From Alphaproteobacteria bacterium (lineage in GTDB: Bacteria; Pseudomonadota; Alphaproteobacteria; CALKHQ01), in the NCBI GenBank assembly GCA_965227515.1, contig CBDDFZ010000001.1:3328001-3392000 (forward strand): 64,000 nt of DNA. Reading direction: 5' to 3'. The translations under genes and the position numbers were made by a program. The notes below the pieces were generated by a model. The model had not been told where the DNA came from and did no database searches. It saw nothing but the letters and a program-made list of their open reading frames with translations. Below, piece after piece: positions 1-13,953 of the stretch; position 1 is the first letter of the stretch; every line of letters starts with the position of its first letter.

Positions 1-428
1 TGGGCGCCGGCGAGGAGTTCATCCTCTCGGTCACCGAGAACGGCTATGGCAAGCGCTCGTCGGCCTACCAGTACCGGGTCACCGGCCGCGGCGGCCAGGG
101 CATCGGCAGCATCGAGACGTCGGCGCGCAACGGCTCGGTGGTGGCCGAGTTTCCGGTGGCCGACGGCGACCAGATCATGCTGGTGACCAATGGCGGCCAG
201 TTGATCCGCACCTCCGTCGACGAGATCGGCATCATGCGGCGCAACACCCAGGGCGTGCGCCTGTTTAAGGTGGACGATGACGAGCGCGTCGTCTCCGTCA
301 CCCACATCGCCGAGGACGATATCGCCGACGACGAGGATGCCGACGACGAGGATCAAGGCCCCGATGATGCCGGTGATGCCGGCGACGCGGCCCCAGACGG
401 CGCCCCCGATGACGCTGGGGAAGACTGA
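1..428 (+). CDS. gyrA: DNA gyrase subunit A, C-terminal part (5' truncated by window)
   Basis: Frame from nt 3 reads ILSVTENGYGKRSS..YRVTGRGGQG..IMLVTNGGQLIR..RRNTQGVRLF (beta-pinwheel repeats) plus an acidic tail; gyrA-coaD-tRNA synteny. Confidence 0.93.
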   Translation, partial: GAGEEFILSVTENGYGKRSSAYQYRVTGRGGQGIGSIETSARNGSVVAEFPVADGDQIMLVTNGGQLIRTSVDEIGIMRRNTQGVRLFKVDDDERVVSVTHIAEDDIADDEDADDEDQGPDDAGDAGDAAPDGAPDDAGED

Positions 429-429
429 G

Positions 430-927
430 ATGCGGGTTGCCGTCTACCCGGGCACCTTCGATCCGGTTACCAACGGGCACATGGACGTCATCTCCCGCGC
501 CGTGCGGGTGGTGGACAAGCTGGTCATTGCCGTTGCGTCCAACCTGGACAAGCAGCCGCTGTTCTCGCTGGAGGAGCGCACCGATATGGTGCGCGCCGAG
601 ATCCACGCCCTGAACGGCGGCTCCGCCGAGACCGAGGTGCGGCCCTTCGATTGCCTGCTGATGGACTTCGTGGCCGAGGCCGGGGCCAGCATCATCGTGC
701 GCGGGCTGCGCGCGGTCAGCGACTTCGAGTACGAGTTCCAGATGGCCTCCATGAACCGGCGCCTGAACCCGAAGGTGGAGACGGTGTTCCTGACCGCGTC
801 GGAGACCAACCAGTTCATCGCGTCGCGGTTCGTGAAGGACATCGGCCGGCTGGGCGGCGACATATCCCACTTCGTCTCGCCCCGGGTGGCCGCACGCCTG
901 ACCGAGAAATTCGCTGGCCAAGGGTGA
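430..927 (+). CDS. coaD: Phosphopantetheine adenylyltransferase
   Basis: MRVAVYPGTFDPVTNGH, RGLRAVSDFEYEFQMA; ATG at 430. Confidence 0.97.
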   Translation: MRVAVYPGTFDPVTNGHMDVISRAVRVVDKLVIAVASNLDKQPLFSLEERTDMVRAEIHALNGGSAETEVRPFDCLLMDFVAEAGASIIVRGLRAVSDFEYEFQMASMNRRLNPKVETVFLTASETNQFIASRFVKDIGRLGGDISHFVSPRVAARLTEKFAGQG

Positions 928-957
928 TTTGCGCTGGGTAGTTGCCTTTCTTCCTAA

Positions 958-1082
958 CCGTCATTGCGAGGAGCGCCGATCAGGCGCGACGCGGCAATCC
1001 AGAGAACTGTTGGCGCAGCACCGCAATCGCCTGGATTGCCACGCCGCCCCCATAAGGAATGGGACGCGGCTCGCAATGACGG
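958..1082. repeat. CGTC-type REP-like palindromic doublet
   Basis: Outer IR CCGTCATTGCGAG (958-970) / CTCGCAATGACGG (1070-1082); inner IR GGCAATCCAG (993-1002) / CTGGATTGCC (1031-1040). Confidence 0.8.
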
Positions 1083-1120
1083 ATCAAGGGTTGGTTGGTT
1101 CGGTCAAGACCGCTTTGCGG

Positions 1121-1149
1121 TTGACGGCGCGCCGGGCCTTACCTACCGT
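1121..1149 (+). promoter_or_regulatory. Putative sigma70 promoter of tRNA-Lys
   Basis: TTGACG-N17-TACCGT followed by a GC-rich discriminator, upstream of the tRNA. Confidence 0.5.
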
Positions 1150-1197
1150 CCGCCCGGCCTTGGCTGGCGCGCAATGCGCCACCACATGGTGTGTTAC

Positions 1198-1273
1198 GGG
1201 CCCGTAGCTCAGCTGGCAGAGCACCTGACTTTTAATCAGGTTGTCGCAGGTTCGAACCCTGCCGGGCTCACCA
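1198..1273 (+). tRNA. tRNA-Lys (anticodon UUU), integration target
   Basis: 76-nt cloverleaf: acceptor GGGCCCG/CGGGCTC, anticodon arm CCTGA-CTTTTAA-TCAGG, T-loop TTCGAAC, encoded CCA. Confidence 0.98.
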
Positions 1274-1274
1274 A
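1226..1274 (+). repeat. att core, left copy (49 bp, 3' part of tRNA-Lys)
   Basis: TGACTTTTAATCAGGTTGTCGCAGGTTCGAACCCTGCCGGGCTCACCAA identical to 13900-13948. Confidence 0.96.
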
Positions 1275-1277
1275 CAA

Positions 1278-1290
1278 AATCAATTACTTA
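1278..1290 (+). promoter_or_regulatory. IHF-binding consensus next to the att core
   Basis: AATCAA-TTAC-TTA matches WATCAA-N4-TTR, 3 bp inside the left att repeat. Confidence 0.6.
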
Positions 1291-1359
1291 GACCGAGAAG
1301 CATTTGCCAGCGCGACACGCTTCCTCCAAATAGGTACGACATAGGTCCAGGAGTGCATA

Positions 1360-1635
1360 ATGGCTTTGCAGATGTTTCACATTGGCCCCGACCCTGCAGC
1401 TTTCGGGAACTCTCTCTGGCAGGGTCGGCCCACCAAGGAAGGTGCGCTCATCGCCGCGTCGTCTGCGCAACAGGCCAGAGAGATTGCAGCGGATGCCTAT
1501 GCCGATCCGACGGCAGGCGGCAGGTCACCATGGCTGCAGCCCATCACGACCTTCTGCTATGCGGTGCCATGTGTCGGCCCGATACCCAGCGATCCCGGCA
1601 TCATGGTTGAAGGCTTGAAAAGTCCCGGCCAATAA
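1360..1635 (+). CDS. Hypothetical protein (91 aa), element cargo
   Basis: AGGAG RBS before ATG; followed by a terminator hairpin. Confidence 0.6.
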   Translation: MALQMFHIGPDPAAFGNSLWQGRPTKEGALIAASSAQQAREIAADAYADPTAGGRSPWLQPITTFCYAVPCVGPIPSDPGIMVEGLKSPGQ

Positions 1636-1638
1636 AGA

Positions 1639-1663
1639 GGCCCCGCCGAAGCGGGGCCAGTTT
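1639..1663. terminator. Intrinsic terminator between convergent genes
   Basis: GGCCCCGC-CGAA-GCGGGGCC then AGTTT. Confidence 0.7.
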
Positions 1664-1687
1664 CAAGATGCAAATTTGCGGCTTGAT

Positions 1688-2200
1688 TTACGCGGCGCGA
1701 CGCTTCCGCCCGGCCTCGATGACCTCGTTATCGACCAGCTCGGTATTGTCACCCGGCCCGCGAATGACCAGCGTCTTGCCCTCCGGGATGACCTTGGGAA
1801 TGTAGGTCAGCGGCGGGTCGCGATGCCGGCCCGCATCCATTCGGTAGTGATCGTTGCCGTAACAGTCCTGGTCATAGTCGGGATCGTCCGCTGCCACCGG
1901 GCTCGCTTCACCGCCTTCCTCCTGCCAGCCGCAGTCATCGCACGTCTCGCCCTCCCCTTCGCATTGGGCGCCCTCGTCCTCGCAGTCCTCCTCCACGTCT
2001 TCCAAGTCAGCGTCGAAACCGAACAGGCGTTCCGCGACGCTCCACGGCACGACGATCTCCAGAGTCACGCCATCGTCCGACTGGTCGATGACGTGCCCGG
2101 CGTTGAACATGACGCTTGCCAGGGCCAAGGCATTCTCGATGCCCAGGGACTCTGGAATCGCTGGCGATGTAAGGGATGTGATATGCGTGCCATCAGGCAT
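1688..2200 (-). CDS. Acidic hypothetical protein (170 aa), element cargo
   Basis: Strong AAGGAGGT RBS; D/E-rich middle with several Cys. Confidence 0.65.
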   Translation of the reverse strand: MPDGTHITSLTSPAIPESLGIENALALASVMFNAGHVIDQSDDGVTLEIVVPWSVAERLFGFDADLEDVEEDCEDEGAQCEGEGETCDDCGWQEEGGEASPVAADDPDYDQDCYGNDHYRMDAGRHRDPPLTYIPKVIPEGKTLVIRGPGDNTELVDNEVIEAGRKRRAA

Positions 2201-2277
2201 TGCCGTACCTCCTTCATAGGTCGGTTGTGCTTAGGCCGGGTGGGGTGCTCCAACACCTCGCCCGGCCGGTGGGGAAT

Positions 2278-2772
2278 TCAGATCTTGTCCGCGACCTCGT
2301 TCCACACGTCGCTGGCACCCTCGATGAAGGCGTCAACAAACTCGACGGACACGCCGCTCAAGTGTTCCGGCTCAATGCCGAGAAAGATCGCGACATTCTC
2401 GAAGCTCGCTTCGTCGTCGCTAAACACCTGGCCATACAGCCAAGTTGCAGCGTCATCGCCCTGTCCCATGTCCCAAATGACAGCGCTATCTACCTTGGAC
2501 ATAGCCAGAAGCTCGCGGTAACCGGCGCGCTGGCGAGCCCAATGCATACCATTGGCCTTCCCGCCTTGCCCCTCTTCGGCCTGGTAGTTCTCTTTGCTCG
2601 CACGGAGCCTTGCGATAACATCGTCCATTGATGCGATCTCCTTCACGGTTTCGATGTGTCTGAGCTCGCTCTCGAAGGCCCGCTGGGCTGCGGCTGACCA
2701 GTTTGCAGCTTCGCCGGCCGCGTCCATGCGGGCCTTCATTTCATCGGGAACATACACATTCACTCGTGGCAT
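2278..2772 (-). CDS. Protein with N-terminal ribbon-helix-helix (Arc/CcdA-like) domain
   Basis: MPRVNVYVPDEMKARMD..NWSAAAQRAFESEL pattern; GGAGG RBS. Confidence 0.65.
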   Translation of the reverse strand: MPRVNVYVPDEMKARMDAAGEAANWSAAAQRAFESELRHIETVKEIASMDDVIARLRASKENYQAEEGQGGKANGMHWARQRAGYRELLAMSKVDSAVIWDMGQGDDAATWLYGQVFSDDEASFENVAIFLGIEPEHLSGVSVEFVDAFIEGASDVWNEVADKI

Positions 2773-2790
2773 TCGGTTCCTCCGAACTCA

Positions 2791-2852
2791 GTGTGTGTAT
2801 GTTGGTCCGACTATGCGCATATGTCAAGCGCCGTCACCAAACATACACACAC
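2791..2852. promoter_or_regulatory. Inverted-repeat operator pair around the promoter of the RHH gene
   Basis: GTGTGTGTATGTT (2791-2803) / AACATACACACAC (2840-2852) flank a minus-strand TTGACA (2827-2822). Confidence 0.6.
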
Positions 2853-2865
2853 ACGGGTGCGTTTG

Positions 2866-2888
2866 TCCCACCCTTGGTAAGGGTGGGA
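2866..2888. terminator. Hairpin at the 3' end of the packaging operon
   Basis: TCCCACCCTT-GGT-AAGGGTGGGA directly after the last stop codon; no U-tract. Confidence 0.45.
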
Positions 2889-3086
2889 TCAGTGCACCGT
2901 CCCTGCCGGCGCCTGTAGGGCCTCGACGGCGCGGAGGATACGCAGCCAAGCCGCATGGCCGTCGTCGTCGCCGCGCTGCTGCATCTCTTCGGCCCGCACC
3001 TGTGCCTCAAGTGCGGCGGTGCTGCCAAGGCGCTGAATCAGCAGGTTGGCTGTGCGATAGATGTCCAGGTCACTTGGCTGCGGCAT
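2889..3086 (-). CDS. Small helical hypothetical protein (65 aa)
   Basis: MPQPSDLDIYRTANLLI..WLRILRAVEAL; TGATG overlap with the upstream gene. Confidence 0.7.
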   Translation of the reverse strand: MPQPSDLDIYRTANLLIQRLGSTAALEAQVRAEEMQQRGDDDGHAAWLRILRAVEALQAPAGTVH

Positions 3087-5935
3087 CAGAAGTTCGGCAT
3101 CTCGATATCGCGCTCGTCTAGTATCTGGCGCGCCAATTTCTCGCGCTCGCGTTCCCGTCGGTCGTCGGTCCACGGGACGGTGGACAGGCGCTCCATCTCA
3201 GCAAGTTCGGCCTCCAAGCGCTCCATCTCCTGCGTGTTCAGATACGGGACATTTGACTCACGTTCAGGCGCCTCTTCCTCAACCTCGATATCGGCGCTGA
3301 TACCAACGGCGGCGGCCGCCGCACCAGCGCCGCCAGTCATCGCATCAAGAGCCCCATCAACCAATGCGTCAACCGCGATATCGGCGCCTTGTTCCAAGGC
3401 CTCCTGTTCGTCGACATGCAGCGGCGCAAGGGCCACCAGTTCCTCGGCGGTCCAGGTGCGGATATTGCCTTGCGCATCCACCAGCAACCGCCCAAAGGAC
3501 CGCACGCCCGGCCCGTCGGTTGGCATGACAAGCGCGAAGTTGCCCTGGTGGTTGATCCAGCGTGCCCCGTCAACCCGCCCCGTCCAGGTAGCTCGCATTA
3601 TGCGCTGCTCTACTGGCGACGAAAAGGCGCCATCCAAGAAGTCGGCATAGTAGGTCAGCGGATCAATGGCATGTAACATCTCCCGCGCAACCTGCATGCC
3701 CTCGACGATCTCTTGTCCCTGGGCTCTCGGCACAAACGCGGCGCCGACGGCGGAGTCGATGGGAACCTCGTCCTTGTAGAGAAGATCTATCGCCATCTTG
3801 ATCGCGCGCTCGGCAGGCGTGCTTGTGTCGCCAAAAGCCATCACGCCGATGCTCTGCCCAAAGCCCCCCTCAACCTGCTCGGGCGTGCGGGCCAGGATCG
3901 CAATGGCAAGCTGCGTTGCCGCCGCCTTGTCCTCGTCCGCTATCTCACGCAACAGTTCGGTCGAGCCGACCATGCCCATGAGGTCGGCATAGACATGGCC
4001 GCGTGCAGCCTCGTAGTACGTGTTGACGTCTCGCAACACGTGGTTTCGATCAGCCTCTGACGAATATTGCTCCTTGAAGCGGTCCATCGCCCCGCTATCC
4101 ATGAGCATGTTGGCGATGAATGTGCGCTCGGTGAACGAGTCTGCCGGTGCCGAGACCACGTGACGCCAGAACGGATTGATGCCGGCGTCGATCAGTTGAT
4201 CCATGACCGCCAGTTCCATCGGCTCATCGTCCAGCGCCACCGTCAGGCCCATCAACAACTCGGTCTTGTCGCCCATGTCCTCGGCACGGCGGAAGGTATC
4301 CAGCACGCTGTCCATCATGGCGGCGGGGAATGGCTTCCATTGTTCGGCGTCGGCCGCCAAGGCGCCTTGGCGGCTCCACAGTTCGCGAATGACGGCGCGT
4401 TGCTGCGATGCAGTCCCGCCGTCCGCGAAAGCCGTCGCGAACCGCTCGGCAAGCTCCGGTGACTGCTGCAGCACATAGCCCGGAAGGTCAGCCCCGCGCT
4501 CGCCTAGGATCTTCTGAGCTTGCCCCTGCAATGCCTCGGCGCGGCGCATCCGCGTGGCCAGGTCAGGCCCGCCAGCTTCTAGCGCCGCGCGCTCGTCTGC
4601 GATCATCGCTTCCAGCTCGGCATTCGACATGCCGTGCATGGCCTCGAACTCGCCGGCAAGGCTTCGTGCAGCCTGCAACCCTTCCATCACCTCCGTGCCG
4701 GATGCCGGGTCGAAGCGGTAGGCGCGCATCACCTGGTCGGTCGTCAAGGGATCGGTCACGGGAATGCCGAGTTGCAGCGCCGCGACTTCATCCTCCACCC
4801 GTGCCGCAACGTCGGCCCGCAAGGCGGAGTCCATGTCGAATGCGCGGGCCTCGGCACGGGCATAGAGCCGGTCGGCCTGTTCAGGCGTCAGGCCCTCGAT
4901 CGGCACGCGCTCCGGCAGCATCGGCGCGACAGGCGTCGCGGGCGGCGGTGCCGACTGGACGGGTGTAGACGGCTCGGGCACCGCCAACGCCAGTTCGCGA
5001 AGCTCGTCCAGGCCCTCGGCGGTGTCTTCTACGTCGTTGTTGTCCAACACCCGCGCCAGCTCGCGCACGTAGTCCATTGGCGCGACTGCCTCGCCGGCAC
5101 CGGGCGGGCCACCGGTCTGCACCGCAAACCGCGCGTGATCGCCAAACAACTCGACCGCCCGGTTGAACACCGCAGCGCCTCGTTCGCGGTCGCCAACTTC
5201 GGGCGCATAGACCGTGTCGTCCGGTGGTGCGGCGGCAGGTTGTGGCGGTGCCGTTGGCACGGCGCCATGCGCCTGTAGCCATCCATGCGGGTCGCGGGAA
5301 ATGGCAGCCGAGTGATAGGCATAGCGGTAATCAGCACGCCGCGACTCGAGCAATTCCACGCCAGCCGTGCGCGTGATCAGGCCAGATGAAACCATGCCGC
5401 CGATGGTGAGCCCGATGGTGTCCAGATCGGCCGCCATGTTTGCGGTCGGCATCGAGGCATGAGCCACAAGGTCGTTCAGCGCGGCGGTGGACTGCGCCAG
5501 GTTGTGGTCATCCTCGCGCGCCAATGCCAGGTCACGGACAGCGATGCCAACCCGTCCGACCAGCCCCTCATTGCGGTTGCCGACCGTATCCAGCAAGTCG
5601 GTCTGCAATGCATCCATGACGGTGGGATCGTAGTTCTGTTGCCCCAGCACGCCCGGCAGCGTGGCCCGAAATTCCTCGAACTTCACGGCATAGCTGGCGA
5701 AGTCCTGGTCCTGGTCGAGCTGCTGGAGGAACTGGTCCGACAGATTGCGGATGGTCGCCCTGCCCTCCGACAGTTGCACCGCGCGCAACTGCTCTAGGCG
5801 CTGGTCGACCTCTCCGGTGGCCAGTTCCCCAAACTGCTGCAGCGCTGCACCGCCCTGCCCGAACGATGCCGGGTTGACGGTGGCCGCCCGCCCGGCCTGG
5901 ACCGTCGTGCGCGGCGTGTAGGGAATGATCGGCAT
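3086..5935 (-). CDS. Large helical protein (949 aa), podophage internal virion / DNA-ejection-like
   Basis: Long open frame coupled by TGATG overlaps; N-terminus MPIIPYTPR..NPASFGQGGAALQQFG; Ala/acidic helical composition; function inferred. Confidence 0.55.
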   Translation of the reverse strand: MPIIPYTPRTTVQAGRAATVNPASFGQGGAALQQFGELATGEVDQRLEQLRAVQLSEGRATIRNLSDQFLQQLDQDQDFASYAVKFEEFRATLPGVLGQQNYDPTVMDALQTDLLDTVGNRNEGLVGRVGIAVRDLALAREDDHNLAQSTAALNDLVAHASMPTANMAADLDTIGLTIGGMVSSGLITRTAGVELLESRRADYRYAYHSAAISRDPHGWLQAHGAVPTAPPQPAAAPPDDTVYAPEVGDRERGAAVFNRAVELFGDHARFAVQTGGPPGAGEAVAPMDYVRELARVLDNNDVEDTAEGLDELRELALAVPEPSTPVQSAPPPATPVAPMLPERVPIEGLTPEQADRLYARAEARAFDMDSALRADVAARVEDEVAALQLGIPVTDPLTTDQVMRAYRFDPASGTEVMEGLQAARSLAGEFEAMHGMSNAELEAMIADERAALEAGGPDLATRMRRAEALQGQAQKILGERGADLPGYVLQQSPELAERFATAFADGGTASQQRAVIRELWSRQGALAADAEQWKPFPAAMMDSVLDTFRRAEDMGDKTELLMGLTVALDDEPMELAVMDQLIDAGINPFWRHVVSAPADSFTERTFIANMLMDSGAMDRFKEQYSSEADRNHVLRDVNTYYEAARGHVYADLMGMVGSTELLREIADEDKAAATQLAIAILARTPEQVEGGFGQSIGVMAFGDTSTPAERAIKMAIDLLYKDEVPIDSAVGAAFVPRAQGQEIVEGMQVAREMLHAIDPLTYYADFLDGAFSSPVEQRIMRATWTGRVDGARWINHQGNFALVMPTDGPGVRSFGRLLVDAQGNIRTWTAEELVALAPLHVDEQEALEQGADIAVDALVDGALDAMTGGAGAAAAAVGISADIEVEEEAPERESNVPYLNTQEMERLEAELAEMERLSTVPWTDDRREREREKLARQILDERDIEMPNF

Positions 5936-6312
5936 CAGGGACCGTCGTACGGCTCGACCGTGATGTGCCATGCCGAGACGCGACCGTGATCCTCCGCCTT
6001 CGGCTCGCGACTGGTAACTAGCAGTTGCATGCGGCTGTGAGGCTTCACGCCACCGCGCCAGGTCGGGCTACCAGCCGCGCGGGCCTCGAACTTGCCAGGG
6101 CCGTATAGGCATAGGATTGTGTCGTCGACGTACAGGATTTCGCCATAGGCGCTGTCGAACCAGCCCGGCGCCAGGATTTCCTCCGGCGTTGCGTGCGTCA
6201 TTAGCGTCCAACGCGAGGGGCACGATCCAACTGATTCCGTCCGAACCATGTCTTGCCTGCCCAGGTGAACCGGCGGACGATCTGTCGGCTTTTCGAGCGT
6301 TTTGGTAGTCAT
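5935..6312 (-). CDS. Hypothetical protein (125 aa), possibly capsid-associated
   Basis: ATGA-coupled to the TerL nuclease gene; W-x-x-x-T..EEILAPGWF..LYVDDTI motif. Confidence 0.55.
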   Translation of the reverse strand: MTTKTLEKPTDRPPVHLGRQDMVRTESVGSCPSRWTLMTHATPEEILAPGWFDSAYGEILYVDDTILCLYGPGKFEARAAGSPTWRGGVKPHSRMQLLVTSREPKAEDHGRVSAWHITVEPYDGP

Positions 6313-7055
6313 CTCTTTCTCCGTTCAATGTTGTAGTGCGTAGGCATTGGTCGCCGTCTTTCCGCTGTGCGCGGCTTGGCGAAGCGCAGGCTCATGACGG
6401 CAATGCGCGTTGCCGACAGCAAGTCGTCGGCTTCCTTCACGATCTTCCCGGCCTTGCGGTGATAAAGGCGGAATTCCTCGAACCAGTCGGCCAGGTGCGA
6501 GAACACCTTGAAGCGGCCGGCCTGCATGTATTCCAGCATCTGAGTGATGCCGGCCTCGGTGCCGAAGCCGCCGTCCTCGTGGGTCGCGTGCTCAGGCAGC
6601 ATGTTGAGCCCCCGGCGGCGGTATCCGCCCGCCAGCGCCTCGCCTGAGCCCTTGTCGTGCTGGTGACCGTCGTGCGGCCAGGCCCAGGGCATCGCCGGTC
6701 CCCAGGGCTTGATGGCGTCGACGTGGATGGCCGGAGTTTCCTCGCGCGCCCGATAGCACTGCGCCACGTAGATCACGTCATCGTCGCGGTCCCAGGCCAG
6801 CTTCACGGCGCCGAAAGGATGGTCCCAACCGAAGTCCATGCCACCGATGCAGGCGTAAAAGTCCGGCACCTTGAACGGCGCGCAGGTGATGCCTTCCTCG
6901 GCCACAGGAAAAACCCGGCCGCTGCCCAGCATCGGCACGCCCTTGGCACGGGCTTCGCGCTCGTGGGCGGGGTAGTCCGCAGCGATGCGCTCGCGTTCCT
7001 CCGGGCTGAAATGCTCGGCATCGTCCAGCGTCAGGAAGGTGACGTGTTTCGTCAT
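6309..7055 (-). CDS. Terminase large subunit, C-terminal nuclease half (P22 gp2-like)
   Basis: DDAEH..YPAHEREARAKGVPMLGSGRVF, GMDFGWDHP, WPHDGHQH, FEEFRLYHR, DDLLSATR. Confidence 0.92.
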   Translation of the reverse strand: MTKHVTFLTLDDAEHFSPEERERIAADYPAHEREARAKGVPMLGSGRVFPVAEEGITCAPFKVPDFYACIGGMDFGWDHPFGAVKLAWDRDDDVIYVAQCYRAREETPAIHVDAIKPWGPAMPWAWPHDGHQHDKGSGEALAGGYRRRGLNMLPEHATHEDGGFGTEAGITQMLEYMQAGRFKVFSHLADWFEEFRLYHRKAGKIVKEADDLLSATRIAVMSLRFAKPRTAERRRPMPTHYNIERRKR

Positions 7056-7834
7056 CGGCGCCGCACCCGGTAGTGGCTTGGAAGCGGCTTCGGCGGGATC
7101 TTCACGCCCATCGGGTCGTCATCGGCCTCGGTCCAACCCGGCGGGTCAACCAGTTCGGGTTCGCCCTCGTCCACGTCCTGGTGGATGAAGCCGCGCACCA
7201 CTTCCGACATGCCCAACAGCGGTGTCATCGTCGCCAATGCGATGCCGCGGTTGTCGGATAGCCGGGCCAAGCCCTCGTTGTAGATATCGACGGGCGGTTC
7301 CTCGTCGTACCAAATCAAATGCAGCGCCGCGCCCTGCCACTTCTCGCGGCCCTTTTCATAGGTCTTGAAGCCCAGGATGGATTGGCCGCCGGTCACATGC
7401 TTGATGATCACCTGGTCGAGCGCGTCGGCAACCGTGCGGGCCATCGAGTGCGGCCCCAGGGCATCGCCCGGTATCATCCCCGTGCCCCAGGACGATCTGT
7501 CGGCGGGCGGGCCAATCAGCTTCTCTTGCGGAACGTCGCGCGTGGACTCGGACGTGATGCCGGATGCCCAGGCAACTATCGGCTCGCCAAACCGCTTGCC
7601 CTTCCACCAGTCCGGATATCGGCCAGTCAGGTGCATCGCGACTTCGGCGCCGCCGGCCAGCGTCTTGCCGCATCGATTGCCTCCCAACAGCAAGCGCTCG
7701 CGGTGCTCGGCACCAGCGGCATGGAACTCAGCCTGTTTCGGATAGGGTCGATACCTGGATAGCTTGCGGCGGGCCTTGCGGCGGGCCAGCTCGGCAAGCT
7801 CGGCATCGAGTTCCTTGAGCGCCTCAGCCGTCAT
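7052..7834 (-). CDS. Terminase large subunit, N-terminal ATPase half (P22 gp2-like)
   Basis: YPKQAEFH, Walker A GGNRCGKT, HLTGRYPDWW, Walker B IWYDEEP, coupling motif TMTP. Confidence 0.92.
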   Translation of the reverse strand: MTAEALKELDAELAELARRKARRKLSRYRPYPKQAEFHAAGAEHRERLLLGGNRCGKTLAGGAEVAMHLTGRYPDWWKGKRFGEPIVAWASGITSESTRDVPQEKLIGPPADRSSWGTGMIPGDALGPHSMARTVADALDQVIIKHVTGGQSILGFKTYEKGREKWQGAALHLIWYDEEPPVDIYNEGLARLSDNRGIALATMTPLLGMSEVVRGFIHQDVDEGEPELVDPPGWTEADDDPMGVKIPPKPLPSHYRVRRR

Positions 7835-8258
7835 GTTCGATGACCTTCGCGGCCAGCCCCAACTGACGCATCTTCGCCGCAATGGATGCCTCGATCTGTT
7901 CGTCGGTGCGAGTGTCCATCTGCACCCGCGCGTCTACCCGGTCGACAAGGTGGCCACTCAGCTTGCCCTGCAACTCGGTCGCCTTCACGGCGGCGCTGTG
8001 CTGGCCGGCTTCCCGTGCCGCCTCACGGTCTTCCTTGAGCTGGGTCATCAGCTTGTCGACGGTGAATTCGTTCCGCTTTGCCGTCTCGGCCTGGATCTCG
8101 GCAATGCGAACCTTCACGTCGTCGCGCTTGAGCAACTCCCGCGCCCGGTACCGCCCGCCCCGATAGCCCGCCTGCCGCGCGGCCTCAGCCCCGGAATTCC
8201 CGGCGGCATAGGCAATGGCAAACGCTTCCATGCGAGGATTCCAGCGGTAACGGGCCAT
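7824..8258 (-). CDS. Terminase small subunit
   Basis: HTH AFAIAY..GAEAARQAGY..ARELLKRDDVKVRIAE; SAAVKATELQGKL; directly upstream of TerL. Confidence 0.88.
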   Translation of the reverse strand: MARYRWNPRMEAFAIAYAAGNSGAEAARQAGYRGGRYRARELLKRDDVKVRIAEIQAETAKRNEFTVDKLMTQLKEDREAAREAGQHSAAVKATELQGKLSGHLVDRVDARVQMDTRTDEQIEASIAAKMRQLGLAAKVIEHDG

Positions 8259-8938
8259 CAGCCCAAGCTGCCATCCGCCGGCTTGTCGCCGTACAACCGC
8301 GTCGCCAACCGCATGCCGATATCGGCCAGCCGCTTGGCTTCGTCACGGTCGCCGCGCCTGTTTGCATCTATGGACTGCCCCACAGCCTTCTGACGGGCGC
8401 GCTCCAGCCGGGCACGCTCCGTTGCACTCAATTCCTCGGGTTCCACTCCATCACTCCTTTCACCAACTTCGCCATGGTCGGCGGGGGTTGCGTAGATTCC
8501 AGGCCATGCCGTCTGGCGGCGGGCCGATAGCTCCCGCTTGGCCAGGGCCGACAACAGGCCGACATCCTTGTCCAGCCCCGCCTTCACGCCAGCGTTCACC
8601 AATGCCGGAGGAAGGCTGGACAGGGCGGACTGCACCAACCGGACGTTCAGGTCGTAGTCGCCGCCCCAGGCCCGCTTGAGGTTGCCCGCAAGGGTCGGGT
8701 CCGTCTTGGCGAACTCGGCAGGCGTCGGCACGTCATCGCCCAGCGTGCTGCCCAGGTAGCTCGTCAGGTTGCGCAGCGACTCCGGGCTCTGCCCCTCAAC
8801 GCCAGGCGCAAGCCCAGGTGTCGGGTCGTCGTGCTCGAACTCCGCGAAGTCCTCTACCGGGGCGGGCCTGTCCTCAAGGAACGCCTCGACATCGGCGTCG
8901 ATAAGCGCCTCTTGCGCTTCGGCGGGAATCTCACTCAT
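8258..8938 (-). CDS. Hypothetical protein (226 aa), scaffolding-protein-like
   Basis: Acidic disordered N-terminus, LKRAWGGDYDLNVRLVQSAL..GLDKD core, C-terminal helical hairpin; function inferred. Confidence 0.5.
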   Translation of the reverse strand: MSEIPAEAQEALIDADVEAFLEDRPAPVEDFAEFEHDDPTPGLAPGVEGQSPESLRNLTSYLGSTLGDDVPTPAEFAKTDPTLAGNLKRAWGGDYDLNVRLVQSALSSLPPALVNAGVKAGLDKDVGLLSALAKRELSARRQTAWPGIYATPADHGEVGERSDGVEPEELSATERARLERARQKAVGQSIDANRRGDRDEAKRLADIGMRLATRLYGDKPADGSLG

Positions 8939-9165
8939 CGACCGGCAAGCCGCTTGTTGCGCTCGGCAGGCGTCTCGGTCTTGCCAATGCCGTAGTCAGC
9001 TTCGGCGAAGTGCTGCCGCAGCGGCCCCCTGCCATGGCCGCCAATCAAGCCGTGCAGGCCACCGGCGGGAACGTCCATGCTGACGCGCCAGCATCCGCCC
9101 GGCAGGCCCTGCAACACCTTCATCTCGGATTGGTCGTCAATGACCGCGCACACCAGCTTCGCCAT
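8935..9165 (-). CDS. Hypothetical protein (76 aa)
   Basis: ATGA overlap with the downstream gene, within the operon. Confidence 0.6.
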   Translation of the reverse strand: MAKLVCAVIDDQSEMKVLQGLPGGCWRVSMDVPAGGLHGLIGGHGRGPLRQHFAEADYGIGKTETPAERNKRLAGR

Positions 9166-9167
9166 CG

Positions 9168-9356
9168 TCAGGCCGCCTGCGCCGTGATCGTCACGACACC
9201 TGCCGTGGTGCCGTTCGTGGCGAACTCTTGCGCAATTGTCCGCAGCACCGGGTCACGGTGGCTGGTCAGGTTGTTGTGAACGTCGTACCCCGCGTCCGCG
9301 CTGCCGATCTTTATCGACACCGCGTCAGCCTCGTATCTCACTGTCGTGCTGGCCAT
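9168..9356 (-). CDS. Hypothetical protein (62 aa), first gene of the packaging operon
   Basis: GGAGG RBS before ATG 9356. Confidence 0.6.
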   Translation of the reverse strand: MASTTVRYEADAVSIKIGSADAGYDVHNNLTSHRDPVLRTIAQEFATNGTTAGVVTITAQAA

Positions 9357-9554
9357 GTGGCCCTCCGTACCTATCACGTACCTATTTCTGAGTATGGACT
9401 AAAAACGCCACAAAAACAATGATGAACAACTGATAAAAGGTCAGTCACTCGTTTCCAGTGGCGATGCGAGATGCGCGGCAGGTTGGTTCAAGGCAGTCAT
9501 CGCGCGCGTGGCTCGAAGTGGCTTGCAGAGGCTCTCTCCACGCCATCAGAAACA

Positions 9555-9672
9555 AACCGGACAAGACGGACACAACCGGACATGTCCGCCAAATGTCCGG
9601 AAGCACTGCCAACCGGACAGACAGGACATGGACATAAGTAATGTCCTGTCCTGTCCGGGTGCTTTGTCCGGC
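9555..9672. repeat. GGACA/TGTCC iteron cluster, putative replication origin
   Basis: Six GGACA plus six TGTCC pentamers in about 115 bp, downstream of the helicase operon. Confidence 0.7.
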
Positions 9673-9674
9673 TC

Positions 9675-10001
9675 TCAGAAGTGGAAGTGAGGGTCGTCGT
9701 TGTCGTTTGCAATTTCGGTGCGATGGTCATCGGTGCACTGGCCGGCTGCCGGATTGTGGATGGGCTCGACTTCTTTGTAGTCCTCCAGCTTCCTGGCGTT
9801 GGCGTCCCAGTCTGCCTGGGTTTCCAGGTGCCAGTCTGAGAACATGTCCACGCCGCCGGACCAAGCGGTGCGGTGCTCATCGCAGACGAACACATGCACC
9901 CTTCCCACGTTGAGGTAGCCGTCCGACTTGCCGCAACGAGGGCAGCCGCCGAAATAGTGCTCGGCAGCGTTCGCCATGATCTGGTCGTGTGTCAGTGCCA
10001 T
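9675..10001 (-). CDS. Small putative zinc-binding protein (108 aa)
   Basis: CPRC..CDEH ligand set; follows the helicase gene. Confidence 0.65.
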   Translation of the reverse strand: MALTHDQIMANAAEHYFGGCPRCGKSDGYLNVGRVHVFVCDEHRTAWSGGVDMFSDWHLETQADWDANARKLEDYKEVEPIHNPAAGQCTDDHRTEIANDNDDPHFHF

Positions 10002-10012
10002 CGGTCTTCCCT

Positions 10013-11089
10013 TCATGAAGTCCATGCGTAGTTCCCCCAGACGCCAACCATCCCCTTCTCCTGGAGGCTGGTAAGCGAACGCTTGAAGGCCTTCTGGCGT
10101 GCGTCCTGTCCGTCGATGCCGGCACCTTCGTAGAAGTACGAGCGCCACAAGCTCAGCGTTACGACAGGCTGGTTCATCGGTATGTGGTTGCTGGCTGGCG
10201 CTATCTCGCCTTCATCGGCTAATGCCTTTTTCAACAGATCCAGCGCCACCTTCGCCTGTCCGCGCACCTGGCGGCCGACCGGCTCGGCCTGATAGTCGTC
10301 TTCCTCGACCACGCATGAGGTGAGGTCGTCGCCGTCGTCGTCCACGCCGACCGTGACGGATGCGAGCCTGGAAGCGATCACGTCGCCCTCGGGGCCGTCC
10401 TTCATGTCCTCGACAGTGGCGGTGATGGTTCCGCTGGCGGTGCGCTGCACGGCGATCTGTGCATCGGCTGCGGCGGTCAGGGACGTGTGTCCGCGCGGGC
10501 GGGTGCCATCGATACCGCAGTGATGGACCACAACGACGGCGCAATCGAACGCCTGGCGGATGGCGTCGGCTGCCGCGATGTATGCGCCCATGGCTTCGTC
10601 GTCACGCTCAGAACCGACCAATGAGCGGTTCAGGGTGTCCAGGACGACTGCGACAGGTGGCTGATCCTGCATCTGTGTGCGGATAGCTGGGATCAGGGCC
10701 TCATGCTCCCTGATCAGGTCAATGCGCACCGGAAGCAGGCGGAATGGTACCGGCTCCACCGACTCCGCCAGCTTGACCATACGGAAGGCCTCGGCTCGCA
10801 GATTGAAGCCGTCGGCGCCCTCGAAGGCGCAATAGACCACCGGGCCTTGCGTGACACGCCGACCGCGATATTCCCAGCCCAGCGCCACGTGCATCGCGGC
10901 ATCGAAGGCCCAGAACGACTTGCCGCACTTCGGCGGTCCCCAAACCACCGTCAGTCCGCGCCTCGGCATCAGGCCTTTGATCAAATATTGACGGCCGCCG
11001 CGGGGGCGTAGGGCATCGAACGGCAGCAATGCGAACCGGGGCGGTGTCGCCTTGTCGAAGTCGTCATTCAGATCCCTAAGCTGCTGCAT
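10013..11089 (-). CDS. SF4/AAA_25 (RepA-like) helicase
   Basis: Walker A GPPKCGKS, Walker B VVLDT, VVHH..PRGHTSL. Confidence 0.88.
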   Translation of the reverse strand: MQQLRDLNDDFDKATPPRFALLPFDALRPRGGRQYLIKGLMPRRGLTVVWGPPKCGKSFWAFDAAMHVALGWEYRGRRVTQGPVVYCAFEGADGFNLRAEAFRMVKLAESVEPVPFRLLPVRIDLIREHEALIPAIRTQMQDQPPVAVVLDTLNRSLVGSERDDEAMGAYIAAADAIRQAFDCAVVVVHHCGIDGTRPRGHTSLTAAADAQIAVQRTASGTITATVEDMKDGPEGDVIASRLASVTVGVDDDGDDLTSCVVEEDDYQAEPVGRQVRGQAKVALDLLKKALADEGEIAPASNHIPMNQPVVTLSLWRSYFYEGAGIDGQDARQKAFKRSLTSLQEKGMVGVWGNYAWTS

Positions 11090-11771
11090 CCAACTCTCCC
11101 GCCGGCCACAGTCGTGCGTCGATGCCGGCAGTCGTCAGCTTCAGCAGCGCCTCGGTGTCGTCGGTCAAGGCGCGGTCGACACCCCACAGCTCGTGCGGAT
11201 CGTCGTTCAGCCACACGACGCCAGGGCCATGCACCTGCCTGTGCCATGCCGCGACTGTGCCGTAGACGACCAGCGGCTCGTCGCAGATCAGGGCGCGGTC
11301 GATGGGATCAGGCCCGATGCCGCAGCCCAGGATGCCGGGGAAGCGTAGCCGCAGGTAGGTCTGGCGACTGTTCGGCCTCCACGCTACCGAATTGAGCACC
11401 TCCCCGTGAGGCGAGCGCATCGGGCTGATACACCACAGTTCGGATGGCCGGGTCAGCCGGTCGGACAGAAGGTGGTCGGGGAACGGCGCGTATCGCCCGG
11501 CCCCAACCAGGATGCGGTCAACGCCGATCAGGTCGGTTGCCTTCTGCATCTCCAGCGTGATGGCGTGGGCGCGCAACCGGTCGTTCAGGCCGTAACGCTC
11601 GGCCAGGCGCTGAGCGATGGCCAACTCGTGGTGGAAGTCCACGTCCGGTTGAACATCTGCGGCGAAGGCGGTATGATCAGCGTCGGAATTGAAGCCAGCC
11701 AGCTCAATCCATTCTTCCGCCGCCCCGGTTCCGCCAACCGTGGGCGGCGGTTTCGTATCAAGCTGCGTCAC
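11076..11771 (-). CDS. Hypothetical protein (231 aa) in the primase position
   Basis: Overlaps the helicase start; first gene of the leftward operon. Confidence 0.6.
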   Translation of the reverse strand: MTQLDTKPPPTVGGTGAAEEWIELAGFNSDADHTAFAADVQPDVDFHHELAIAQRLAERYGLNDRLRAHAITLEMQKATDLIGVDRILVGAGRYAPFPDHLLSDRLTRPSELWCISPMRSPHGEVLNSVAWRPNSRQTYLRLRFPGILGCGIGPDPIDRALICDEPLVVYGTVAAWHRQVHGPGVVWLNDDPHELWGVDRALTDDTEALLKLTTAGIDARLWPAGELDAAA

Positions 11772-11783
11772 CCGAAATTCCCT

Positions 11784-11837
11784 GTTGACGTGGCTTCATA
11801 ATGACACCATCATAAGTGGCTTCATTATGAAGTCAAC
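11784..11837. promoter_or_regulatory. Overlapping divergent promoters with a tandem operator
   Basis: GTTGAC..GTCAAC termini enclosing GTGGCTTCAT(A/T)ATGA twice (11790-11804, 11816-11830). Confidence 0.7.
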
Positions 11838-11851
11838 CGGGGAGTTCGTGC

Positions 11852-12346
11852 ATGCCGCCGAAAGACCGGAAAGCCGGTGACCGTGCGACGATCACGTTGC
11901 GCCTGCCGGAGAACATTCGGGCGGAGTTGGAGATAGAAGCCGAACGCTCAGGCGTCTCGATGAACGCGCTGATTACACAGCAGCTTGAGCGCGCGGCACG
12001 AGCCAACAAGGCGCTATCTGCAATGGAACGTGTCACTGGTATGCTCGCAAGGCATCAAGACACAATGCTGAAGGTATTTGATAGCCACGCCGCGCAAATA
12101 AAGCAGCTCAATATTGTTGAGCAAAAGCTATTTAATGTCATAGATATTTGCACTGAAACAATCCACGACTACGAACAAGACATGAGTAGGCGCAATATTA
12201 GCTTCACTCCCGTTGCCGATAGAATTCGCGGTCAGCTGGATATGCTTAAGATATTGGCAGAGACTGTGCACGCGCATTATCTGGAAGAAGAGCGCGCGGC
12301 AAGAAACGAAATGCAGGTCAAGGAAGGTGAGGCGGCCGATGACTGA
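11852..12346 (+). CDS. Arc-family (RHH) repressor with coiled-coil C-terminus
   Basis: ITLRLPENIRAELEIEAERSGVSMNALITQQLE. Confidence 0.82.
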   Translation: MPPKDRKAGDRATITLRLPENIRAELEIEAERSGVSMNALITQQLERAARANKALSAMERVTGMLARHQDTMLKVFDSHAAQIKQLNIVEQKLFNVIDICTETIHDYEQDMSRRNISFTPVADRIRGQLDMLKILAETVHAHYLEEERAARNEMQVKEGEAADD

Positions 12347-12533
12347 TACCGTCATGGATCGCATCGTCCGGGAGCCTGAGGCTCGCCAGATTTCCGGGCT
12401 GTCCCGGTCTCAGCGTTATCGCCTGGAGCGCGAGGGGAAGTTCCCCAAGAAGCGTGCGATCACCGGCAGCCTGTACGGTTACAGGCTCTCCGAGTTGATG
12501 GCATGGGTCGAGGGGCTACCGGAGCGGAACTAG
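12339..12533 (+). CDS. AlpA-family excisionase/regulator
   Basis: RIVREPEARQISGLSRSQRYRLEREGKFPK..YRLSELMAW. Confidence 0.87.
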   Translation: MTDTVMDRIVREPEARQISGLSRSQRYRLEREGKFPKKRAITGSLYGYRLSELMAWVEGLPERN

Positions 12534-13735
12534 CCCCGCTCCATCACCACGACGTTGCCACCGATGCCGAGCAGCTGACGAAGTTTCAAGCCCCACGATT
12601 CCAGCGCCGCCGTCTTTTCGGCCAGGTAGTCGTGCCGATCATAGACCCGCCCGACGCCGACCTCCGTGTGGTTCAGCACACGGTCAACGATGAAGCGCGT
12701 GTGGCCCAGCTTCGTCATGCCGGTGGATGCGGTGCGCCGCAGGTCGTGCGCCCGGAAGTTTGCCACGCCTGACAGGTTCTTGATGGCCTCCGACGCTTTC
12801 GAGGACGCCCGCACGTGCGTGTTCCGGCGGGTTGGCGATGGAAAGACCAGCGCGTCGTCGAGCCCCTGCTGGTCCCGCACGATATCCATGGCGAGATCGC
12901 TCAGCGGCACGATGTGCGTTTTCTTGTTCTTCGTGCGGTCGCCGGGGATGGTCCATTGGTGGGCCTCAAGGTCGACTTCATCCCACCGCATGCCGCAGAC
13001 CTCGTTCGGGCGCTGTGCGGTGACCAGGATCGCTTTCAAGGCTGCGCCGTGGATGCCGCGCACATCGAATGCCTGCCACAGCGCATGGATCTCAGCGTCA
13101 GTGTAGACACGCTCGCGCTCAACCTCGGCGCCTGGCGCCGGCAGCTTGTGCGCCGGGTTGTTCTCGATACCACCAGTGTCGGTCGCCAGCGCCCAGTTGT
13201 ACATCTTGCGCACGACGGCGAGGCACCGGTTAGCCTGATAGGGACCATTCCGCGAGGCGATGGCGTGCAAGCGCTCGTTCACCTCGCGCCGTGCGATATC
13301 TTCCGCCGGGCGCTTCTGCCAGTCGGCGAAATAGGTGTCGAGGATGCGTTTGTCCTCTGCCCAGCTCCGCTTTTTCACCATGGCCCAGCGTTCGATATAC
13401 AGGTCCGCCAGTCCCTTGAACGTCAGGCGGGCGGCCTCGACTTCGGCCCGTGCCTTCGCGGCACGTTTTTCCACGACGGAATCAACGCCCTTCTGCGCCA
13501 AGCCTCTTTTCTCGACGGCCATCTGGCGAGCATCTTTAAGACCAATCTCCGGGAATGTGCCGAAGGTCTCGCGGCGCTGTTTGCCGTTCACTGCATATCG
13601 GCAGAACCATGCGACCCGACCGCCGGGACTGACACGGACACCAAGACCGCGCGTCTCGGTATCGAACCAGTCGACCTGCCCTTCGCCCGGCTTCAGACTT
13701 TCCAGCCAACGGGCCGTAAACTTATGCTGCGCCAT
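12530..13735 (-). CDS. Tyrosine integrase (P4-like, with arm-binding domain)
   Basis: Arm-binding domain DTETRGLGVRV; catalytic TAQR, TKN, HDLRRT, LNH, VY. Confidence 0.96.
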   Translation of the reverse strand: MAQHKFTARWLESLKPGEGQVDWFDTETRGLGVRVSPGGRVAWFCRYAVNGKQRRETFGTFPEIGLKDARQMAVEKRGLAQKGVDSVVEKRAAKARAEVEAARLTFKGLADLYIERWAMVKKRSWAEDKRILDTYFADWQKRPAEDIARREVNERLHAIASRNGPYQANRCLAVVRKMYNWALATDTGGIENNPAHKLPAPGAEVERERVYTDAEIHALWQAFDVRGIHGAALKAILVTAQRPNEVCGMRWDEVDLEAHQWTIPGDRTKNKKTHIVPLSDLAMDIVRDQQGLDDALVFPSPTRRNTHVRASSKASEAIKNLSGVANFRAHDLRRTASTGMTKLGHTRFIVDRVLNHTEVGVGRVYDRHDYLAEKTAALESWGLKLRQLLGIGGNVVVMERG

Positions 13736-13899
13736 GTCTGCCTCCGCGATAGGTACCTCATAGGTACAGACAGGACATGGCACGCACCGGCACGCATTGC
13801 AACAGCACGAAACACAACGAACCGATAACATATTGACATATAATGAGAAAAAACTCCACACGCGAGACAATCAGAAACACACCGAAACATGACCTCAAA

Positions 13900-13948
13900 T
13901 GACTTTTAATCAGGTTGTCGCAGGTTCGAACCCTGCCGGGCTCACCAA
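13900..13948 (+). repeat. att core, right copy (truncated tRNA-Lys)
   Basis: Exact 49-bp copy of 1226-1274; 5' half of the tRNA is absent. Confidence 0.96.
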
Positions 13949-13953
13949 TCTTC

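Follow-up and report, generated by a model that had tools for sequence, protein, structure and literature searches.

In a 64,000-nucleotide (nt) stretch of an alphaproteobacterial genome (assembly GCA_965227515.1, contig CBDDFZ010000001.1, positions 3,328,001 to 3,392,000; called the window in the following) we analysed the terminase of an integrated island, whose large subunit (TerL) is encoded by two overlapping genes, one for the ATPase and one for the nuclease. Judged by its sequence the locus encodes a large terminase of the P22 gp2 type (Terminase_6), and the two-chain design is a trait of the family and not a peculiarity of this locus. The chains are cut apart within the ATPase fold, after the motif-III helix and ahead of the last core strand, and not at the linker between ATPase and nuclease, where an earlier note on this DNA had placed the cut. 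Homologue comparisons show the two-gene layout, cut at the same loop, to be a widespread natural trait of P22-gp2-like terminases. A working two-chain TerL with the chain content described below, a widespread split, reassembly into one protomer and a gained tail on the ATPase chain, the end of which copies that of the nuclease chain, is the reading that we consider likely.

Among molecular motors large terminases are, to our knowledge, the strongest, and in current models they consist of a single chain, with a linker between ATPase and nuclease. The two-chain family offers a ready system to study the communication of the catalytic core with the lid, the last core strand and the nuclease, and it could serve as a natural precedent for engineered split packaging motors.

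Gene layout of the two-chain terminase

The terminase module of the window comprises the following genes and parts of genes, with lengths in amino acids (aa) and the predicted local confidence (pLDDT) of structure models where given.

7824-8258, minus strand: TerS, the small terminase (Pfam Terminase_2, 3.5e-7; phrog_51, 6e-12)
7052-7834, minus strand: TerL chain 1 (ATPase), 260 aa
6309-7055, minus strand: TerL chain 2 (nuclease), 248 aa
7055-7183, minus strand: tail of chain 1, residues 218-260, absent from single-chain relatives; coil, pLDDT 57-78
7055-7090, minus strand: twin motif copy 1, KPLPSHYRVRRR, at the end of chain 1, then the stop inside ATGA
7029-7049, minus strand: chain 2 residues 3-9, a strand by which, as the two-chain model predicts, the ATPase sheet of chain 1 is completed
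6318-6353, minus strand: twin motif copy 2, RPMPTHYNIERR, at the end of chain 2, then KR and the stop inside ATGA

ATPase and nuclease are not on one polypeptide, a stop and a new start standing between them. Chain 1 ends in ..KIPPKPLPSHYRVRRR and chain 2 in ..RRRPMPTHYNIERRKR, and both tails have the core P-[LM]-P-[ST]-H-Y followed by a basic run. The stop of each gene overlaps the next start as ATGA, at the junction of chain 1 to chain 2 as well as at that of chain 2 to an open reading frame (ORF) of 125 aa. These features had been read from the letters in the earlier note, and all of them hold on the minus strand. The note had also remarked on the similar starts of the following genes, MTKH.. 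after chain 1 and MTTK.. after chain 2. They are as described, but MTKH is the form M-[ST]-[RK]-H-[VI]-T with which nuclease chains start throughout the family, and therefore its likeness to MTTK needs no special explanation.

Pfam and PHROGs give the genes the identities that the earlier note had assigned. Chain 1 matches Pfam Terminase_6N with 55.7 bits (cut-off 22) and chain 2 Terminase_6C with 80.9 bits (cut-off 22.6); chain 2 also matches Terminase_6N with 27 bits. The motifs expected of a packaging ATPase are present on chain 1: Walker A (G51-T58, GGNRCGKT), Walker B with the catalytic Glu (D177-E178), motif III (T202-x-T204-P205) and the helix 211-218, and in a 50-sequence alignment G56, K57, D177, E178, T202, T204 and P205 are invariant. 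The invariant acidic residues of chain 2 are D74, D129, D134, D210 and D211, and the P22 gp2 nuclease 4DKW matches its residues 43-236 with an E-value of 8.1e-60. A phmmer search of the PDB sequences with chain 1 gave no match, and 4DKW was the sole match when the PDB was searched with a profile of the family alignment.

Evidence that the split is genuine

Public contigs support the two genes as they stand. A contig from run X1 (1789 nt, depth 24) covers positions 6236-8024 with 0 gaps and without an indel at the junction, and thus bridges the region 7040-7200, in which the earlier note had proposed a look at the reads. Its 18 substitutions relative to the window resemble the sister copy described below or a collapse of two copies. 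A run of another study, labelled as another organism (X2), is identical to the window over 7056-7259 and 6520-6802; it leaves parts of the window uncovered, which is no evidence of their absence. Since these matches are exact and stand under another organism label, the terminase module may occur outside this strain.

The genome holds three TerL loci of the Terminase_6N type, and all three are split. The copy in a sister element (G000:C1, 1.756 Mb) has 10 base differences in gene 1 and 3 in gene 2, with a single amino-acid change (L59E) in total; this near restriction to synonymous differences is the signature of purifying selection on both TerL genes, as far as sequence comparison can tell. 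The third copy, 58-60% identical, is cut in the same loop with the junction TGA-a-ATG, that is, in a different frame relation.

For a pseudogene or an assembly error speaks merely the stop within a normally single gene. Given the gap-free bridging contig, the synonymous sister differences, and the paralogue and thousands of homologues that are cut alike, this explanation has practically no standing, and the earlier view of an evolved two-chain terminase instead of a frameshift or nonsense lesion is borne out. A sequencing error is ruled out by the gap-free public contig and by the sister and third copies.

A second way to explain away the split is that a programmed -1 frameshift or splicing joins both ORFs into one ordinary TerL chain. 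The frame of chain 2 is indeed open for 22 codons upstream of its ATG, at -1 relative to chain 1, and split terL genes that are healed by the splicing of group I introns exist, according to the available text on the Jug phages (PMC12880540) and on Twort (PMC13729910). However, the two genes overlap by 4 nt, hence there is no intervening sequence, and Rfam detects no intron, its sole match in 1-14500 being a tRNA. Homologues show the frame relations 0, +1 and -1 and spacers of -35 to +858 nt, so that there is no conserved recoding site, and a fusion protein would carry an insert of ~40 residues in a loop that has 6-8 residues in the one-chain forms. Joining in expression is therefore very improbable. 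A split by an intron, an intein or a homing endonuclease was likewise ruled out, because the genes overlap by 4 nt and Rfam shows the tRNA only.

The cut within the ATPase fold

The position of the cut follows from two alignments. In all three genomic copies chain 1 covers Pfam Terminase_6N positions 2-154 and chain 2 covers positions 163-213, and the 4DKW nuclease construct is alignable only from chain 2 residue 43 onward. The AlphaFold model of chain 1 (pLDDT 87.5) resembles the TerL ATPase domains of P74-26, D6E, T4, HK97 and Sf6, and its fold closes with the strand 198-203 (motif III) and the helix 211-218. Modelled alone, chain 2 has disordered residues 1-9 (pLDDT 51), helices 18-26 and 30-37, and then the nuclease. 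From these alignments and models, chain 2 probably supplies the last core strand and the lid helices (18-37) to the ATPase, so that each ATPase fold would be built from both chains.

Since the last core strand and the lid lie on chain 2, the chains must reassemble. In the model of the two-chain complex the contacts of lowest error are those between chain 1 residues 43-50, the strand before Walker A, and chain 2 residues 3-8. The complex scores 0.67 and the best of 3 controls 0.00, with an agreement of contacts between runs of at least 38% and a partner pLDDT of at least 74; the mark for this score is passed by 58 of 80 complexes of solved structure and by 2 of 110 mismatched pairs, counts that are approximate here, as custom alignments were used. 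One point tells against the complex model: structures of single-chain TerL proteins have been solved, and the model may pass by likeness or memory. A joint model of both halves had been suggested earlier, and its outcome supports, and does not show, that chains 1 and 2 bind each other.

Chain 1 comprises most of the ASCE (additional strand, catalytic E) ATPase core, and chain 2 begins in the surface loop after the motif-III helix. In the mechanism that we favour, the ATGA overlap would couple the translation of both genes, and strand complementation, as the model suggests, would rejoin the chains into one TerL protomer in which ATPase and nuclease stay coupled. The proposal of the earlier note that the split uncouples cutting from pumping is thus unlikely, since each ATPase fold is built from both chains. 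If the mechanism is true, this is a natural case of a packaging-motor ATPase fold that is assembled from two polypeptides.

Distribution and history of the split form

A search with chain 1 among proteins of 143-455 aa (E<=1e-10) found 2222 proteins. Of the best 120, 81 end at most 10 residues and 34 end 11-25 residues past the equivalent of window residue 217, 4 have tails of 43-50 residues and 1 runs on. The corresponding search with chain 2 (136-434 aa) found 4447 proteins; among the best 120 of them, 103 begin no more than 8 residues from the conserved MTIDDAEH block, in 4 the start precedes this block by 9-20 residues, and the remaining 13 are pieces of one-chain proteins. Both searches exclude full-length proteins by their length limits and so overstate the split form. 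Without a length filter, in 1.84 billion representatives at 50% identity, 90 of the 150 best matches are single-chain, 34 reach the motif-III helix without a nuclease part (roughly 25 of these end within about 23 residues), and the other 26 are fragments. A class-level sample of 401 genomes contained 24 with a match, at 28 places: 12 split, 14 single-chain and 2 broken. The source names on the matches are mostly Alphaproteobacteria, such as Mesorhizobium, Bosea and Rhodospirillaceae. Many of the split TerL genes are annotated merely as 'domain-containing protein' or 'hypothetical', and these annotations can now be corrected.

The split point is conserved among the split homologues, which answers one half of a question that the earlier note had raised; the other half, the conservation of the tails, is taken up below. 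The start of chain 2 is nearly always M-[ST]-[RK]-H-[VI]-T and aligns to the loop ..P-D-R-H-V-T.. of the one-chain forms. The junctions of the split relatives range from a 35-nt overlap to spacers of ~100 nt (L012, L015, L016), 409 nt (L024) and 858 nt (L017), and all three frame relations occur. As far as junctions can tell, this variety shows that the two halves are separately translated, and a conserved recoding signal is therefore ruled out. The two-gene layout is a natural one that occurs with every kind of junction, be it a 4-nt overlap, a spacer of 1 or 100 nt or a whole gene in between.

Chain 2 region trees show the split to be labile: at one and the same loop it appears to have arisen, or to have been undone by fusion, on more than one occasion. 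In a FastTree tree of 145 rows the label split or one-chain needs at least 11 changes, of which the well-supported branches force at least 2. The approximately unbiased (AU) test (49 rows, long branches removed) rejected a single split clade with p 0.003 and a log-likelihood (lnL) difference of 109, and the split L024 is nested among single-chain forms with a support of 100. Three points reduce the weight of this history: the tree covers the chain 2 region only, the split group was named after the first tree, and recombination could mimic repeated splitting.

Some relatives of the family show further peculiarities. The 858-nt spacer of L017 (G120:C21) contains an unrelated ORF of 169 aa (locus 865-1374) on the same strand between the TerL halves, for which no Pfam family was found at E<=1. 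In L032 (G190:C1) the TerL relative is broken directly after motif III by an ORF resembling serine recombinases or MerR-type proteins, and the nuclease part was not found nearby. Ten relatives of 548-860 aa (P0241, P0299, P0312, P0336, P0346, P0371, P0373, P0375, P0380 and P0385) align to chain 1 in two separate segments and have ~320-380 residues inserted just before Walker A, an insert that is intein-like in appearance; P0241 and P0373 end like split ATPase chains.

The chain 1 tail and the twin ends

Chain 1 extends 43 residues beyond the last residue that can be aligned to single-chain relatives, which have 6-8 residues there; the excess over a short linker had been seen correctly before. 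The tail consists of a proximal block, E-L-x-x-P-P-G-W..D-D-D-P, and a distal block, P-P-K-P..Y, with the basic end. Among the 120 best chain 1 matches such a long tail is common only to P0002, P0003 and P0004, and the parts EL..PPGW, D.DDP, PPKP and an aromatic residue near the end are kept in this group. Chain 1 of this element and the three database relatives have gained a tail of 43-50 residues, and in this element the last 12 residues of chain 1 are a copy of the C-terminal peptide of chain 2.

The local alignment of the two window ends, KPLPSHYRVRRR and RPMPTHYNIERR, scores 47 (BLOSUM62), a value that is reached by 0 of 119 other family nuclease-chain tails and by 3 of 20,000 shuffles. 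It exceeds the scores of the same ends to their own orthologues (23-31 and 20-24), and most nuclease chains of the family end in ..W-M-G-x or similar, unlike P-x-P-[ST]-H-Y. Translated in six frames, the 5.5-Mb genome contains P-[LMIV]-P-[ST]-H-Y 4 times, always at the TerL chain ends of the two sister elements. The aligned tail codons, 12 on each side, have only 17 of 36 bases in common; the likeness is therefore at the protein level, as the earlier note had stated, and a recent duplication of the tail DNA is ruled out.

For two of the long-tail relatives the partner chain was recovered, namely P0122 for P0003 (both from a Rhodospirillaceae metagenome-assembled genome) and a nuclease chain on the metagenome contig L074 for P0004. 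Further features of L074 are an ATGA junction, a TerS of 44% identity and a homologue of the 125-aa ORF of 40% identity. A search of metagenome contigs with the P0004 tail returned only its own contig L074, and the same query gave 22 pattern-matching stretches and no relative in viral contigs. A degenerate DNA pattern for PPGW-x3-DDDP matched 38 stretches of genome contigs, none of which encodes TerL, and a word search with chain 1 residues 205-260, with 2 candidates, returned the window's own protein only, so that no closer tail relatives are indexed.

The two-chain model places tail residues 226-232, 234, 238 and 248-249 on chain 2 (residues 58-66, 89-94 and 185-187). Residues 229-248 of chain 2 are modelled as coil (pLDDT 63-80) and end in ERRKR.

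A number of results weigh against a general role of the tail or of its twin end. The tails of P0002-P0004 are 26-41% identical to that of the window, compared with 59-64% in the core. Of the 120 split ATPase chains 115 have tails of at most 25 residues, and the long tail is therefore not needed for the two-chain design. The L074 pair (SYDTRYRIHR / SYSTNYGVLR) scores 26, which 2 of 119 family tails reach (shuffle p 0.03), and the pair P0003/P0122 scores 17, reached by 23 of 119 family tails and at chance level (p 0.5). For 10 cognate pairs, 7 of them with short tails, the permutation p is 0.006, rising to 0.06 without the window pair. Finally, chain 1 residues 250-260 and the end of chain 2 are free in the two-chain model, with no confident contact.

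The twin ends, as their alignment scores indicate, are real and non-random in this element. One relative shows the likeness weakly and another lacks it, and twin ends are not a family trait. The earlier claim of twin tails thus stands for the window pair; conservation among homologues, which had been considered alongside that of the split point, is restricted to a weak likeness in one relative.

Possible roles of the tails

Lambda gpA and T3 gp19 attach to the prohead or its portal by their C-termini. For HK97 the available text describes nuclease domains that were fitted directly below the portal clip (PMC10359639). The available text on D6E TerL describes a basic C-terminal arm after the last nuclease helix, which is in contact with the ATPase site and 'may interact with the portal', and the basic tip of which, R421, tunes ATP binding (PMC5727402). 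By analogy, portal docking by both tails is plausible. The proximal tail block (EL..PPGW..DDDP) would then strap chain 1 onto chain 2, and both free P-x-P-[ST]-H-Y-basic ends would recognise one type of site, most probably the portal clip, resulting in two docking peptides per protomer. We regard this combination of a strap and paired docking ends as possible but doubtful. If it is true, the docking valency is doubled to ten peptides per pentamer for twelve portal subunits, and the twin tails provide a new handle on terminase-portal recognition and on the competition between satellite and helper.

A farther-reaching version of paired portal docking is that a satellite equipped both TerL chains with docking peptides and in this way outcompetes the terminase of its helper for helper proheads, which would be a previously undescribed hijacking strategy of phage satellites. 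We consider this rather unlikely. No portal was detected in the element, and the only PF12236 portal of the genome lies in a remnant, so that neither a helper nor a docking target was identified. The search for a helper in the genome returned only the three Terminase_6N loci, all of them split, and this one PF12236 portal.

The tail of chain 1 could instead be an internal device, in which the proximal block clamps the chains together and the basic end replaces, in cis, a regulatory arm of the D6E type, the likeness of the two ends reflecting a common arm role. The modelled contacts of tail residues 226-249 with chain 2 residues 58-66, 89-94 and 185-187 fit this explanation, as do the best-kept tail block being the proximal EL..PPGW..DDDP, the Arg/Lys runs at the end of both window tails and, in the available text on D6E, the influence of the basic arm tip R421 on ATP binding (PMC5727402). 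However, the 115 of 120 split ATPase chains without such a tail indicate that clamping is not required, residues 250-260 have no confident contact in the model, and the available part of that source mentions no P-x-P-[ST]-H-Y core in the D6E arm (PMC5727402). To us such an internal device is a tentative alternative, about on a par with the docking ends.

The twin motif may also have no function and be a drifting extension that arose after the stop moved; its likeness to the end of chain 2 would then be due to an old local duplication or to convergence in Pro/Arg-rich DNA of 66% G+C. This would agree with a tail that varies freely in length and sequence across the family, is less conserved than the core and is modelled as coil with moderate to low pLDDT, and with the weak or lacking likeness in two of the three cognate pairs of the long-tail group. 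It is harder to reconcile with a motif that is found nowhere else in the six-frame translation of 5.5 Mb, with an alignment score that none of 119 family tails and only 3 of 20,000 shuffles attain, with tail blocks that are kept across proteins only 59-64% identical in their core, and with 17 of 36 common bases, so that the likeness is maintained at the protein level. A functionless motif is in our view improbable, and slightly more so than the satellite strategy outlined above.

Comparison with known terminases

Relative to the one-chain TerL of the P22 gp2 type, the window TerL shares the family and the catalytic motifs, and TerS lies upstream as in P22; it differs by its two polypeptides, which are cut inside the ATPase fold, and by the extra 43-residue tail of chain 1. 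Identity to the one-chain TerL proteins of Xylella phage Xfas53 and Rhizobium phage RHph_N2 is 48-67%. In a collection of 50,697 phage records identity never exceeds 60% to chain 1 or to P0049, which is typical of the split ATPase chains of Mesorhizobium, and only Xfas53 (3 records, 67%) lies above this value for chain 2. The 18 top-row phage records with compared match coordinates, 4 of them also checked via their annotation, are all one-chain.

Published split terL genes that we found are cases with an intron or a homing endonuclease (PMC12880540, PMC13729910). As the available text describes them, Jug (PMC12880540) and Twort (PMC13729910) likewise have several terL ORFs, which are healed by RNA or protein splicing or have a mobile element between the pieces; in contrast, the window genes overlap by 4 nt and have no intron, so that the product must stay two chains. 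No description of an intron-free two-gene terminase was found in the full-text literature, with supplements and most subscription journals out of reach. Chain 2 ends in a short, basic and flexible peptide as does the C-terminal arm of D6E in the available text (PMC5727402), whereas the second copy of such a peptide on the ATPase chain and the P-x-P-[ST]-H-Y core are specific to the element studied here.

The island and its genome

The terminase module lies in an element delimited by a direct repeat at a tRNA gene. The further features of the island are as follows.

1198-1273, plus strand: tRNA-Lys (TTT), the integration target (ARAGORN; Rfam tRNA, 71.7 bits)
1226-1274, no strand: attL, a 49-nt exact direct repeat in the 3' part of the tRNA, 100% identical to 13900-13948
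13900-13948, no strand: attR, the second copy of the 49-nt repeat (repeat search)
12530-13870, minus strand: tyrosine integrase (phrog_1, 1.1e-60; Pfam Phage_integrase, Arm-DNA-bind_3)
11852-12346, plus strand: candidate ribbon-helix-helix (RHH) regulator (weak Pfam HicB/Arc/RHH, E 1e-5 to 5e-3)
10013-11089, minus strand: AAA_25 / primase-helicase-like replication protein (Pfam AAA_25, 4.6e-33; phrog_2850; phrog_906 DNA polymerase/primase, 1.2e-31)
8258-8938, minus strand: ORF of 226 aa, no family found, inside the 95.7%-identical block common to the sister element
5935-6312, minus strand: ORF of 125 aa, which travels with the long-tail terminase module (a 40% identical homologue stands right after the L074 nuclease chain) and is present in the sister element
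3086-5971, minus strand: ORF of 961 aa, no Pfam or PHROG match

The 49-nt repeats at 1226-1274 and 13900-13948 thus bound an element of ~12.7 kb, which contains the integrase, the RHH candidate, the AAA_25 protein, small ORFs, TerS, both TerL chains, the 125-aa and 961-aa ORFs and two further ORFs. Structural families (capsid, portal, tail) were not found among the 16 island ORFs scanned with Pfam and PHROGs, and an ORF of 231 aa as well as the 125-aa ORF gave no Pfam match at E<=1. The nearest viral clusters of the 961-aa ORF are hypothetical ones (0.93-0.94), followed by a T7 gp15-like cluster (0.89), which is a lead only; its product is possibly an internal virion protein.

Because of its size, its attachment (att) sites and the lack of a detected structural gene, the 12.7-kb island looks like a phage satellite with a complete terminase of its own. 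Speaking against this is that the assignment leans on the non-detection of structural genes with Pfam and PHROGs, and that the 961-aa ORF is unexplained and several small ORFs have no assignment. Phage-inducible chromosomal islands (PICIs) carry TerS, and capsid-forming PICIs carry TerS together with TerL. The window element likewise is a tRNA-integrated island of ~12.7 kb with an integrase flanked by att repeats, its own replication module (AAA_25, phrog_906) and its own terminase, no tail or capsid gene was detected in it, and it has a sister island in another tRNA of the same genome. It differs from PICIs by its complete terminase, composed of TerS and both TerL chains, with neither a portal nor a capsid gene detected and no hallmark PICI genes recognised.

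The sister island of ~12.4 kb (G000:C1, about 1750477-1762932; L076, 5477-17932) is inserted in tRNA-Phe with att repeats of 56 nt. It has a different integrase (370 aa), near-identical TerS and TerL, and an ORF of 848 aa where the window island has that of 961 aa. The block common to both islands corresponds to 5929-9366 of the window, 3.4 kb with 95.7% identity. The 961-aa ORF (window 3086-5971) and the 848-aa ORF (L076, 13023-15569) are alike over the first ~109 residues, with 32% identity, and then diverge completely; these divergent large ORFs may be a specificity determinant.

The third TerL locus (G000:C1, 2632500-2638600; L077, 7585-13508) is a short remnant between host genes. It contains DUF6456, an unassigned ORF, the two TerL chains, the PF12236 portal and a phrog_3742 protein, and it is flanked by host genes for an aldo/keto reductase, an FMN reductase, an RTX protein and a prolyl oligopeptidase. 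A PF12236 portal also follows 1.4-4 kb downstream in 4 of 8 split relatives with longer flanks, two of the eight being limited by a contig end.

Repeats were noted at two further places of the genome. Adjacent multi-copy repeats of ~830 and 1210 nt at G000:C1 3320490-3322549, 7.5-5.5 kb left of the window, have at least 11 and at least 3 further copies with 98-100% identity around both contigs and are probably insertion sequences. The gene adjoining the sister island (L076, 1-1035) contains an array of a 54-nt unit, with 12 copies of a 270-nt register and rich in GCC, GGA and CCC, which probably encodes a Gly/Ser-rich repeat protein.

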